A stretch of DNA of 64,000 nucleotides from a virus. Lineage: Duplodnaviria; Caudoviricetes. Shown here in pieces: positions 20,131 to 22,678 of the stretch. The position numbers and the translations under genes were made by a program. The notes under the pieces are model-generated. The model searched no databases. It was given only the letters and a program-made list of their open reading frames with translations, and was not told where the DNA came from. Within the stretch, counting starts at the first letter, position 1; the number at the start of each line of letters is the position of its first letter. The stretch spans positions 1,462 to 65,461 of the IMG/VR virus record IMGVR_UViG_3300035070_003918. One strand, 5' to 3'.

Positions 20131-20178
20131 GTTCAGCGATCAGTTCAGAGATCAGCACAGCGATCAGTTCAGCGAACA
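20131..20178 (+). repeat. Four tandem 12-nt repeats (consensus GTTCAGCGATCA)
   Basis: GTTCAGCGATCA GTTCAGAGATCA GCACAGCGATCA GTTCAGCGAACA, inside short ORF 20092..20310. Confidence 0.8.
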
Positions 20179-20465: not shown

Positions 20466-20623
20466 CCGCCTGCCTCTACTTCGGCGCGCTCATGGTCGGC
20501 GCCATTCTCGCGCACCACGGGTCACCTTGGTTGGCCTTCGCGCTCGGGTGCGTCGTGCTCGTGACTCACGTGCTCTGTCGGTTGATCGATGTGCTGGATC
20601 CGGTGGAGGTCGACGATGAGTGA
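20462..20623 (+). CDS. Small membrane protein
   Basis: Two hydrophobic segments; GTGA coupling. Confidence 0.5.
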   Translation: MTACLYFGALMVGAILAHHGSPWLAFALGCVVLVTHVLCRLIDVLDPVEVDDE

Positions 20624-21053
20624 GGACAACGAGGACGGGGCGGACGTCGGCCAGCTCGAAGGGCTTCTGCCGATGGCGCCTATCAGCATCGCTCGGCTTG
20701 CTGAGTCGGTGGGCTCCGCTCCAGAGTCGAAGAACTTCCGGCGTGGCGTCTGGCAGGCCATCGAAGCCTACCGATCGCGAACCGGCATTCACCTCGTGCA
20801 GCGCGACGGGATGATCGAGGCGGTCACTCCCGAGGAGCAACTACGCGAGGCGAAGCGTCGGTTCGAGACGGCGCGCATCAGGATGCGACGCGGAGCCGAA
20901 ATCGCTAGCGGGTCAGCGACCCGCGATCCATCAATGGTCGCGAAGGCAGAGCGCCTTCTGGACCGCGAAGCGACGCGAGAGCCGACGTTGGCCAATGAGG
21001 CGCGTGAACTGCGCGCGGCCAACCTTCGCAAGCTCTTGCTCGGAAAGACTTAG
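20616..21053 (+). CDS. Hypothetical protein directly upstream of GGH-NN array 1
   Basis: GGAGG RBS; 145 aa; possible winged helix plus coiled coil. Confidence 0.7.
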   Translation: MSEDNEDGADVGQLEGLLPMAPISIARLAESVGSAPESKNFRRGVWQAIEAYRSRTGIHLVQRDGMIEAVTPEEQLREAKRRFETARIRMRRGAEIASGSATRDPSMVAKAERLLDREATREPTLANEARELRAANLRKLLLGKT

Positions 21054-21063
21054 GCAGGTCATT

Positions 21064-21148
21064 GGCGTGGCACTTCGCGGCAGGGACGTGCTCGGCACGG
21101 ATGGGCGTGGACCGGTTTGGCTTGGCGAGGCATGGACCCTTCAATGGG
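21064..21148 (+). repeat. Phased (GGH-NN)15 array 1 plus terminal hairpin; candidate guide ncRNA
   Basis: GGCGT GGCAC ttCGC GGCAG GGACG tGCTC GGCAC GGATG GGCGT GGACC GGTTT GGCTT GGCGA GGCAT GGACC, then CCC-TTCAAT-GGG. Confidence 0.85.
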
Positions 21149-21162
21149 CACTGGGAGAGACC

Positions 21163-21765
21163 ATGAAGATCATGAAGTTCAGGGTACGAATCGACAGCGA
21201 GCGACCCATCATCATCCAGAGCGATCGGCTGGTCGATCCACTCGACCCGATGAGCATCGAGAAGAGGCGGCTAGCCAAGCACAAGGACAAGGCGAGCGAG
21301 GCCTTCCAGGCAGACATTGGCAGGATCGAGTGGTTCGGCGCGCTCTACCTGGACGACGACTGCAAGCCGAGGCTCGCGATCCCGTGCGACAACATCTTGC
21401 GCGCGATGCGCGACGCCGCTGCGCGAGAGAAGCTCGGTGAGACGGTGAAGCGCGAGGTCACCATCGATCCTCCGCTGATCGACTTCCTGGACCACGGTGG
21501 CCCAAAGGATCTCGAGGCGATGTATGCCGACCCGAGGTTCGTTCTGCGCAAGTCGGTCGCTCAGCAGAAGGCGCGCGTGATGCGCGTACGCCCGCGTCTG
21601 CCCGTGTGGGCGCTCGAGTTCACCATGACCGTCGGTGGCGCACAGACGCTGACCGCGGACGACGTGAAGCGGATCCTGACGAACGCCGGCATGGTTGGGA
21701 TCGGCACGTGGCGACCTCGCTATGGTCACTTCAAGGTGACCAAGTTTGAGAAGGCCAAGGACTAG
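21163..21765 (+). CDS. Stand-alone RAMP/Cas7-like protein (200 aa)
   Basis: N-terminal strand FRVRIDSERPII, IPCDNILRAMRDAA, RVRPRLPVWALEF, G-loop AGMVGIGTWRPRYGHF; GGGAGAG RBS. Confidence 0.82.
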   Translation: MKIMKFRVRIDSERPIIIQSDRLVDPLDPMSIEKRRLAKHKDKASEAFQADIGRIEWFGALYLDDDCKPRLAIPCDNILRAMRDAAAREKLGETVKREVTIDPPLIDFLDHGGPKDLEAMYADPRFVLRKSVAQQKARVMRVRPRLPVWALEFTMTVGGAQTLTADDVKRILTNAGMVGIGTWRPRYGHFKVTKFEKAKD

Positions 21766-21779
21766 AAGTTTCGGCTCTG

Positions 21780-21877
21780 GGCTCGGCCGGGCGCGGCACG
21801 GCACGGCAGGGCGGGGCACGGAGCGGCCCGGCGGGGAGAGGCACAGCAAGGCAAGGCAAGGTCCCTTTCTACAGGGA
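21780..21877 (+). repeat. Phased (GGH-NN)17 array 2 plus terminal hairpin; candidate guide ncRNA
   Basis: GGCTC GGCCG GGCGC GGCAC GGCAC GGCAG GGCGG GGCAC GGAGC GGCCC GGCGG GGAGA GGCAC aGCAA GGCAA GGCAA GGTCC, then TCCCT-TTCTAC-AGGGA. Confidence 0.9.
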
Positions 21878-21888
21878 AGGTTTCGCGA

Positions 21889-22044
21889 ATGACTGACTTC
21901 GGCTGGTCTCTCCCATCGGTCCGCGAGCGGGCGCGCGAGTGCCAGCGGGTCGAGGTCATCAATGGGTCGCCGGTGCTGCTCGTCTTCGCGCTGCTCATCG
22001 GGGCGGCGCTGGGGTGCGTGTGTGGGGTTTGGATCAAAGGGTGA
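21889..22044 (+). CDS. Small single-TM protein (51 aa)
   Basis: Own translation MTDFGWSL...VLLVFALLIGAALGCVCGVWIKG. Confidence 0.45.
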   Translation: MTDFGWSLPSVRERARECQRVEVINGSPVLLVFALLIGAALGCVCGVWIKG

Positions 22045-22052
22045 GGTGAAGG

Positions 22053-22286
22053 ATGAGGCCGTACTTCCGAAAGTTGCCGCCGATCGTCGAGGTCCCGAAG
22101 GAGGCCCACGACGGGTACCACGTCGTCGTGAGCGGGAAGGTTGTGGCGTCGTCGTGGTGTCATGACTGCCACGCCGGGACCTGCGACTGCCTGCTGACGA
22201 TGGCGGCTCGAGCTCGACACCTCGGGGTCGGCGCCACCGTCCAGGGTCCGCTCGGGCGCGACCTCATCAAGCGGAGCGCCGCGTGA
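22053..22286 (+). CDS. Small Cys-containing protein
   Basis: CHDC...CDC; RBS present. Confidence 0.5.
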   Translation: MRPYFRKLPPIVEVPKEAHDGYHVVVSGKVVASSWCHDCHAGTCDCLLTMAARARHLGVGATVQGPLGRDLIKRSAA

Positions 22287-22678
22287 GCCCCACGGACGTT
22301 CTTCGGGCGGCTGCTGCGGCGATCCGAGCGCTGCCCGACCGTGACCTGCTCGAGCTCGCGCTGCGGGCGGATGGGCCGACGGAGCCGACGCCGTCGCAAC
22401 CGGCCGTGGCGTCGGCCCCTCCCACGGCCGCGCTCCGGCGGGAGGTCGCGACGAGCACCAAGCGCCCTACGCGGGCGGGCACGAGCAACCAGGAGTTCGT
22501 TGCACGCGCCCTCAGCGTCCTGCTGTCGAAGGCGGAGCCGGTGAGCTACGGAGCGGTGTCCAAGGCATCGGGCCTGTCCCAGCCTTCGACCCACCGCGCG
22601 CTCCAGACGCTCGTCGCGCTCGGCAAGGCGACGATGCGAAAGCAGGGTCACCGCTCGCTGTACGAGGCCAGGCGATGA
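22283..22678 (+). CDS. Winged-HTH DNA-binding protein
   Basis: VSYGAVSKASGLSQPSTHRALQTLVALG. Confidence 0.75.
   Translation: MSPTDVLRAAAAAIRALPDRDLLELALRADGPTEPTPSQPAVASAPPTAALRREVATSTKRPTRAGTSNQEFVARALSVLLSKAEPVSYGAVSKASGLSQPSTHRALQTLVALGKATMRKQGHRSLYEARR

Follow-up and report, generated by a model that had tools for sequence, protein, structure and literature searches.

An array of GG-initial pentamers beside a phage vipr gene is probably the guide tract of a VIPR RNA

The window, that is, the whole stretch of 64,000 nucleotides that was analysed, belongs to a virus record of 65,461 bases, a linear IMG/VR contig estimated to be 80% complete. On its plus strand lie, in this order, a gene for a 145-aa protein, a first tract of pentamers (array 1), a gene for a 200-aa protein for which we use the name vipr, and a second tract of pentamers (array 2); their coordinates, together with those of the sequences that link each array to the following gene, are given in Table 1. 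The genes downstream encode a methyltransferase, a RuvC-like protein and a helicase, and no Cas families were found among the ORFs scanned near the locus.

Table 1. Coordinates of the features at the locus (window numbering). The vrRNA labels follow the interpretation that we consider most probable.
Feature	Position	Strand	Description
Whole module (accessory-like gene, putative vrRNA1, vipr, putative vrRNA2)	20605-21889	+	One present/absent block; 1.28 kb
145-aa upstream gene, candidate Vap-like accessory	20616-21053	+	Winged-helix model
Putative vrRNA1 repeat tract (array 1)	21064-21138	+	15 in-phase pentamers
Units of array 1			GGCGT GGCAC TTCGC GGCAG GGACG TGCTC GGCAC GGATG GGCGT GGACC GGTTT GGCTT GGCGA GGCAT GGACC
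Putative vrRNA1 tail and vipr leader	21137-21162	+	CCC 21137-39 pairs with GGG 21146-48, loop TTCAAT; then Shine-Dalgarno-like GGGAGAG 21153-59
vipr	21163-21765	+	200 aa, RAMP-fold protein between the two arrays
Putative vrRNA2 repeat tract (array 2)	21773-21864	+	17 in-phase pentamers from 21780; one out-of-phase GGCTC at 21773
Putative vrRNA2 tail and leader of next ORF (ATG 21889)	21865-21888	+	Hairpin TCCCT/AGGGA

GG opens 13 of the 15 units of array 1; nine of these have the strict form GGY and four read GGA, and the two units that lack GG begin with TTC and TGC. The two bases that complete each unit (NN) are diverse, with 11 distinct dinucleotides among the 15 units and a single pair of identical neighbours (TT TT). 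When 21064-21138 was re-read, the string of dinucleotides given in the original prediction matched exactly, and TTC and TGC were confirmed as the two degenerate units; the scaffold had, however, been described there without its four GGA units. The end of the array, placed in that prediction at 21148, also needs adjustment, as the pentamers stop at 21138 and the 10 extra bases, CTTCAATGGG, serve to complete a hairpin. The last unit, GGACC, is probably already part of the tail. The array starts 10 bases past the TAG (21051-53) that closes the upstream gene and ends 14 bases ahead of the Shine-Dalgarno-like GGGAGAG and 24 ahead of the ATG at 21163, and its predicted location in the 5' leader of the RAMP gene, just ahead of the ribosome-binding site, was thus borne out.

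The pentamers of array 1 are real and far beyond chance expectation. On the plus strand of the whole window, at least nine in-phase GG per 15 units are reached in only two blocks, at ~21064 (maximum 13) and at ~21780 (maximum 14), and on the minus strand the maximum is 8 per 15-unit window. When the 65,461-base record was simulated 100 times with a first-order Markov model, the maximum was 6 to 9 GG, against the 13 and 14 observed, and the next best arrays in the record itself have 6 GG units. Tandem Repeats Finder (score 30) listed array 2 (21790-21832, period 5) and left array 1 unscored, because the units of the latter have only the three letters of the scaffold in common. Direct repeats of the CRISPR type (~23-50 nt, with unique spacers) were not found at the site, where the same program reported periods of 5, 10 and 20 only. 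Rfam 15 gave no match at the gathering threshold in the window and, in the loci of the seven named phages introduced below, two weak matches only (E 0.33-0.49), both unrelated; ARAGORN found no tRNA in the window, and no promoter-like or terminator-like site was found flanking the arrays. The arrays fold no better than their shuffles (z 0.12 and -0.32), as would be expected of a single strand held by protein.

In array 2, 16 of the 17 units start with GG and 14 have the strict form GGY. Both arrays of the window occupy gaps between cistrons, and both lead into a short tail. In all four arrays of the clade to which this locus belongs (the two described here and one each from the metagenome relatives L088 and L124), the repeats run out in GG(A/T)C(C/T)CT, and a hairpin of 3-5 bp follows whose folding energy is as in shuffles. 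Among these four sequences there is one compensatory change, from CCC/GGG to CUC/GAG, and the tail of array 1 is almost identical to that of the downstream array of L124. The Shine-Dalgarno-like site forms the 3' arm of the hairpin in array 2, where this arm overlaps GGGAAGG, and also in L088; in array 1 and in L124 it lies 4-8 bases behind the hairpin.

The 200-aa protein encoded between the arrays matches the solved Vipr of SUSP1 (PDB 36pp_D, 'SUSP1 Vipr protein'; E 8.6e-18, residues 6-193 of 200 against 4-188 of the chain) and phrog_4652, a family of unknown function (E 3.2e-30); Pfam gave nothing above its cut-off for this protein. Its AlphaFold model, built with 15 sequences as input, has a pLDDT of 91.6, and a Foldseek search of the PDB with this model returned 88 chains at E <= 0.001, headed by Csm3, Cmr and type VII Cas7 (best E 2.9e-6, TM ~0.5-0.56). 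The PDB set used by Foldseek was without Vipr chains, so that the fold search could return Cas7-type neighbours only. The Csm3/Cmr/Cas7-type fold neighbours and the homology to the solved SUSP1 Vipr both uphold the identification of the neighbouring gene as a RAMP in the original prediction.

The residues by which SUSP1 Vipr is described as recognizing its repeats could be located in the alignment. In SUSP1, G2 and Y3 are held by R138, W178 and R179, G1 is read by H17 and D177, and the pocket for position 3 is said to exclude purines (10.64898/2026.04.26.720927). R138, W178 and R179 align to R143, W183 and R184 of the 200-aa protein, which do not vary among the 15 clade members, and neither does the glycine-rich loop GxGTWRPRYG (G179-G181-T-W-R-P-R-Y-G188), and the G1 readers H17 and D177 are replaced by Q19 and T182. 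The first codons of vipr fall in a tandem duplication of 9 bases, AGATCATGA (2.7 copies, 21158-21181), which makes the protein open with MKIMKF, against MKF or MKI in its homologues. Their first residues align with the second ATG (21172), and either 21163 or 21172 may be the true start of vipr.

Homologues of the 200-aa protein were found by tblastn in 127 phage records, all with less than 60% identity. Seven named phages were fetched from among them (Felixounavirus Andreotti, Pseudomonas phages LESphi2 and Medea1, Gordonia phages MakoManhole and Trine, and Mycobacterium phages LittleE and prophiBWHA-1); their homologues are 26-33% identical to the window protein, and every one of the seven loci carries GG-pentamer arrays (GGC or GGT) on the strand of the gene, with one to five arrays per locus and 7-17 units per array. 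The metagenome relatives are closer (63% identity in L088, 69% in L124), and in them the same two positions are occupied by arrays with different NN letters: the array of L088 extends from the upstream gene's stop codon to ~25 bases ahead of the start codon, and that of L124 begins directly past the vipr stop. Over the four clade arrays, which come from the window and only two related loci, the first three positions of the unit have entropies of 0.67, 0.12 and 0.98 bits, and positions 4 and 5 have entropies of 1.87 and 1.91 bits. Position 2 is G in 60 of the 61 units of these arrays, and position 3 is A in 12 and T in three. The same sorts of departure from the scaffold as in array 1 occur in the other three clade arrays, in three to five units apiece.

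Among 80 more distant IMG/VR loci (25-36% identity), none has GG arrays. Blocks in which one letter, mostly C, is fixed every five bases are present in 76 of the 80, a figure obtained with a single-letter criterion without a shuffle control, and in the loci that were inspected these blocks are runs of NNNGC or NNNNC with a common tail. Three to seven such arrays follow the Vipr homologue in loci L008-L087 (for example, L009 3694-4212 and L014 2575-3087), and each closes in a conserved tail (CCATCGCTTGCCAGTTCCACGATCAAGAAC in L009). An unrooted tree of 34 proteins, comprising the window clade (15), the named phages with GG arrays (7) and 12 proteins sampled from the 80 IMG/VR loci, resolves these three groups, each as one well-supported side of a branch. 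No close DNA relative of the window was found among 50,697 phage records and no relative of the 200-aa protein in genome_contigs; the terminase-like ORF has a single distant phage match, with 29% identity.

The 145-aa gene upstream of array 1 adjoins vipr in L088 too (51% identity) and has three database homologues. Its model (mean pLDDT 72.6) consists of three helices, a beta hairpin and long helices, and a BFVD fold search with this model returned at rank 2 a 267-aa protein of Gordonia phage Trine (E 1.7e-3) and at rank 11 a 146-aa protein of an Escherichia phage. The CDS annotated beside the vipr of Trine is also 267 aa long and the partner of the Andreotti vipr has the same length as the Escherichia phage protein, and, judged by phage name and length, the two matches would be vipr-partner proteins. 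The partners in all seven named phages form one family, and phrog_5926 (vap1) was identified in the four of them that were scanned. By direct comparison of the 145-aa gene with the vap1 alignment, hhalign returned a probability of 1.7% and an E of 0.03, the aligned part comprising the wing and the beginning of the long helix. The gene has no phrog_5926 match, and a profile search of the virus record (about 80% complete) found no vap1/phrog_5926 at all (best E 0.49, 0 matches). The model hints that the 145-aa protein may be Vap-like by fold.

Logan contigs of four runs (X1 to X4) were compared with 20500-22100. Contigs of X1, X2 and X4 contain joints that skip 1273 to 1284 bases, from 20604-20620 to 21886-21894, and in X1 there are 235 other letters between the flanks of the module; the flank-to-flank joints in three runs therefore indicate that the module is present or absent as a unit, as an insertion/deletion cassette. 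In a 1588-base contig that is ~99% identical to the window (13 differences over 20537-21766), array 2 (21766 to 21850) is replaced by 71 other letters, and the vipr gene and the downstream flank are retained. Loose contig ends at 21780-21832 in X1-X3 belong in many cases to other GGCNN arrays. These observations suggest that guides are exchanged between near-identical phages. A 227-base contig of X3 has one difference over 20970-21196, and X3 lists one at 21059; if the two are the same, array 1 appears to be unchanged in this contig. Upstream of the module, at 20131-20175, lies a 12-base tandem repeat, GTTCAGCGATCA (3.8 copies, 81% matches). A 131-aa ORF with an IclR-type helix-turn-helix (22283-22678; Pfam PF09339, E 4.5e-7) follows ~400 bases downstream of array 2, and since it lies outside the cassette it is probably not part of the VIPR system.

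VIPR is a kind of system already known from preprints of 2026, with seven published types, and the window locus is a further example of it with a distinct arrangement. Vipr is described as a ~20-kDa RAMP homologue, and its RNAs (vrRNAs) as 9-16 YNNGG repeats, often internally degenerate, that are followed by an invariable 3' tail; most of the systems are carried by phages, and most include an accessory gene, vap (10.64898/2026.04.26.720920). According to the same source, the vrRNAs of SUSP1, seen as RNAs of ~100 nt in small-RNA sequencing, co-purify with Vipr, the upstream vrRNA1 of SUSP1 is a working trans guide, NN pairs with double-stranded DNA on either strand without a PAM and with one base skipped per unit, and Vipr binding silences transcription. 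It names competing prophages, satellites and further VIPR systems as natural targets and reports that self-targets were not found (10.64898/2026.04.26.720920). In the structural account, one protomer is bound per repeat in a helical filament, and the R-loop grows from the 3' end (10.64898/2026.04.26.720927). Vap1 enhances silencing. Vipr and Vap1 are reported to be both required against a satellite, and solo vrRNAs exist (10.64898/2026.10.15.759431).

The window locus resembles the VIPR systems of SUSP1 and of a Pseudomonas fulva prophage ('type II'; 10.64898/2026.04.26.720920) in its ~20-kDa Vipr homologue, its carriage by a phage and the absence of a self-target, and it shares with the SUSP1 kind the GG(Y)NN arrays of 9-17 units with variable NN, on the strand of vipr, one upstream and one downstream. 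It differs from the SUSP1 kind in that its protein stands in a well-supported clade of its own in the 34-row tree, in that a gene with a winged-helix model lies upstream and vap1/phrog_5926 is absent by sequence, and in that there is a single array on each side of vipr, each within an intercistronic gap. The tail is a short hairpin touching the ribosome-binding site of the next gene, whereas the tail described for SUSP1 is a pseudoknot of ~40-60 nt (10.64898/2026.04.26.720920; 10.64898/2026.10.15.759431). Further departures from SUSP1 are the A that occupies position 3 in 12 of the 61 units of the window clade and the presence of Q19 and T182 instead of H17 and D177.

With the backbone proteins of Class 1 CRISPR systems (Cas7, Csm3, Cmr4) the window protein shares the RAMP fold and the glycine-rich loop, and, going by the VIPR preprints, the two kinds of system also share the binding of one protomer per fixed step of RNA and a pairing of guide and target that is periodically interrupted. 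The step is 5 nt with two pairing bases in VIPR, as against 6 nt with five in Class 1 CRISPR, and VIPR is further unlike CRISPR in having no repeat-spacer array and no long repeats between guides and in skipping every third base of the target. Several arrays with a 5-nt period beside the gene are also found with the distant Vipr homologues from IMG/VR and metagenomes; the conserved part of their units is a terminal C or GC instead of an initial GG, and these homologues form a separate clade.

We consider it highly probable that array 1 is the guide tract of a VIPR RNA (vrRNA1), which is coated by Vipr and reads and silences the DNA of a competing element. The observations that support this are the repeats and their rarity, the homology of the protein to Vipr and its RAMP fold, the pairing of gene and arrays in distant phages, the conserved scaffold with differing NN in relatives, and the absence of a self-target. 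Expression of the RNA, formation of a filament, the rule of one skipped nucleotide and silencing are carried over from the preprints on SUSP1 and P. fulva. Speaking against the guide reading are the six units of array 1 that depart from GGY, four of them with a purine in the position whose pocket in SUSP1 Vipr is described as excluding it, the Q19 and T182 substitutions, the lack of vap1 by sequence, the absence of a promoter-like or terminator-like site beside the array, the short hairpin tail, and the target searches described below, which gave no natural target. By this analogy, array 1 would be transcribed together with the vipr operon, and one copy of the 200-aa Vipr would cover each pentamer, with GG(C/A/T) buried and the two variable bases exposed. 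The resulting helical filament could then read double-stranded DNA such that NN pairs with two bases of the target and the third is skipped; the non-target strand would read GTnACnGCnAGn..., and the site would have the form GTnACnGCnAGnCGnTCnACnTGnGTnCCnTTnTTnGAnAT on either strand of the competing element. Transcription of the bound gene, most likely one in a competing phage or other mobile element, would be blocked by the filament. The binding of the array by the RAMP, as originally predicted, agrees with the experiments on SUSP1 and P. fulva that the VIPR preprints describe and is backed here by homology and fold, and the gapped NNx pattern that was predicted for the target likewise agrees with the one-base skip shown for these two systems.

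Such a target was sought with the published scoring, zero to three skipped bases and shuffled-guide controls in the genome of the phage itself, in L088 and L124, and in loci totalling 736,277 bases. In these mismatch-tolerant scans only the arrays themselves (at three skipped bases) stand out, apart from one artefact in which the L124 guide matches its own array and tail at 18 of 24 with one skipped base. With one skipped base, the best sites in the phage's own genome reach 17/28 for array 1 and 22/32 for array 2, values that shuffled guides attain in 100/100 and 10/100 cases, respectively, and the guides of L088 and L124 give nothing above shuffles against the window phage. The larger collections were searched in eight exact sub-pattern scans (seven of IMG/VR and one of genome_contigs), which a target matching at 80-95% could escape; by a rough hand estimate, 0.1-0.2 chance matches are expected per 20-base scan. 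For array 1, there were no exact gapped matches in viral_contigs to units 1-14 (with units 3 and 6 open), 1-10 or 5-14, nor in genome_contigs to units 5-14. Units 7-15 match three contigs of viral_contigs with two distinct sequences, and the six extension units agree there at three to four of 12 bases, which is chance level (total 21-22/30).

For array 2, units 1-13 and 4-13 have no exact match in these scans, and units 7-16 match three contigs that share one sequence of 53% GC (L168 7273-7301, L169 5198-5226 and L170 7483-7511). An open frame runs through the match (peptide GTAPGDTKNN), and the skipped base falls on the wobble position; as the other units agree in two of 14 bases (total 22/34), we treated it as chance. 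Codon-level matching of both guides against 18 proteins reached at best 6-7 of 15-17. No natural target was thus found in these searches, the best external sites (21-22/30 for array 1, 22/34 for array 2) being under the published threshold of 80%, and the gapped matches above shuffled background that the original prediction looked to did not appear in any convincing form, with exact sub-patterns alone searched in the collections. The missing target is a weak negative, because the collection scans covered exact matches only.

Where array 1 lies also suggests a role in cis, in which Vipr would coat the leader of its own mRNA and control the translation or stability of vipr, with or without a target in trans. 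TRAP, an oligomeric protein that reads (G/U)AG triplets every 5-6 nt in the trp leader and so controls expression, offers a model for autoregulation of this kind, although its fold and family are unrelated and its spacers hold no information. Consistent with such a role are the distances of 14 and 24 bases from the end of array 1 to GGGAGAG and to the ATG, the Shine-Dalgarno-like site of the next gene inside or at most ~8 bases from the tail hairpin in all four clade arrays, the absence of a separate promoter-like or terminator-like site, the apparent constancy of array 1 in the X3 contig as opposed to the swap of array 2 in near-identical DNA, and the lack of a target for array 1 in the exact-pattern collection scans, the phage's own genome and the loci. 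The upstream arrays of L002 and L006, however, lie ~100 bases from the start codon, so that overlap with the ribosome-binding site is not general; the upstream vrRNA1 of SUSP1 is described as a working trans guide (10.64898/2026.04.26.720920), and the corresponding array of L088 differs in its dinucleotides, a variation that a pure operator would not require. Suggested by position and compatible with the main guide reading, a cis role seems to us possible but rather unlikely. Because the ribosome-binding site of the next gene is overlapped by the tail hairpin or adjoins it, Vipr, by coating or cleaving the RNA, could couple the maturation of the guide to the translation of vipr and of the downstream gene. 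Autoregulation, RNase and ribosome binding receive no mention in the main text of 10.64898/2026.04.26.720920, nor do autoregulation and processing in that of the competition preprint (10.64898/2026.10.15.759431).

We find it improbable that array 1 is a decaying or decoy vrRNA, guide-like but no longer silencing. Six of its 15 units are not GGY (four GGA, two without GG) and the exact-pattern collection scans found no target for it, yet each of the other three clade arrays has three to five departing units of its own, published vrRNAs are frequently degenerate (10.64898/2026.04.26.720920), the G at position 2 is retained in 60 of 61 units and the array is apparently identical in an independent contig. 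Translation of the array as an N-terminal extension of the protein, which the original prediction had named as the finding that would speak against it, was considered since the frame is open from an ATG at 20995 to 21765. All 14 close homologues nevertheless start at the residue aligned to M4 and all seven distant phage homologues at M1-M4, the PDB match begins at residue 6, an in-frame TAG precedes the ATG of L088 by 6 bases, a 5-base period keeps no codon frame, and an extended reading frame would share sequence with the 3' end of the upstream gene; the extension was rejected on the homologue starts and the TAG of L088, and its likelihood is in our judgment negligible. A functionless microsatellite made by slippage would be in keeping with a short-period tandem array in a GC-rich genome. 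The diversity of NN (11 distinct in 15 units, one identical neighbour pair), on which this reading was rejected, the failure of Tandem Repeats Finder to score the array, and the recurrence of the same scaffold with other NN beside homologous genes across distant phages make it exceedingly improbable, and the original view of the dinucleotides as informative holds.

For the guide reading of array 1, the locus adds a VIPR lineage from a high-GC, uncultivated phage, with a minimal module of 1.28 kb, another accessory arrangement, a very short tail and purines at position 3. It bears on what a minimal pair of Vipr and RNA requires, on how guides are excised from an operon and on the exchange of guides among near-identical phages, and it illustrates that such arrays can be detected by a reader from sequence alone; the picture of the VIPR mechanism is left unchanged. 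Only tentatively, as something we hold to be doubtful, do we raise the further idea of a separate VIPR lineage in which the guides are intercistronic in one operon (Vap-like gene, vrRNA1, vipr, vrRNA2, next gene), the tail hairpin sits at the ribosome-binding site and the scaffold is relaxed to GG(C/A), the relaxed scaffold going with Q19 and T182.

Two further observations concern the actinobacteriophages among the named phages. In all four of their loci, an array is followed by an element resembling the T-arm of a tRNA (GGTTCGAnTCC with a flanking stem; L001 ~1390-1415, L004 ~1400-1425, L007 ~1400-1425 and L003 2295-2363), and in Trine the end of one array coincides in part with a tRNA-like gene reported by ARAGORN. 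These elements could be tRNA-like vrRNA tails used for processing; tRNA is not mentioned in the main texts of 10.64898/2026.04.26.720920 and 10.64898/2026.10.15.759431. Finally, the annotated 267-aa CDS of Trine gene 40 (L003 2097-2900) spans two GGCNN arrays within its first ~98 residues; the annotation looks too long, and the partner gene probably starts near 2391.
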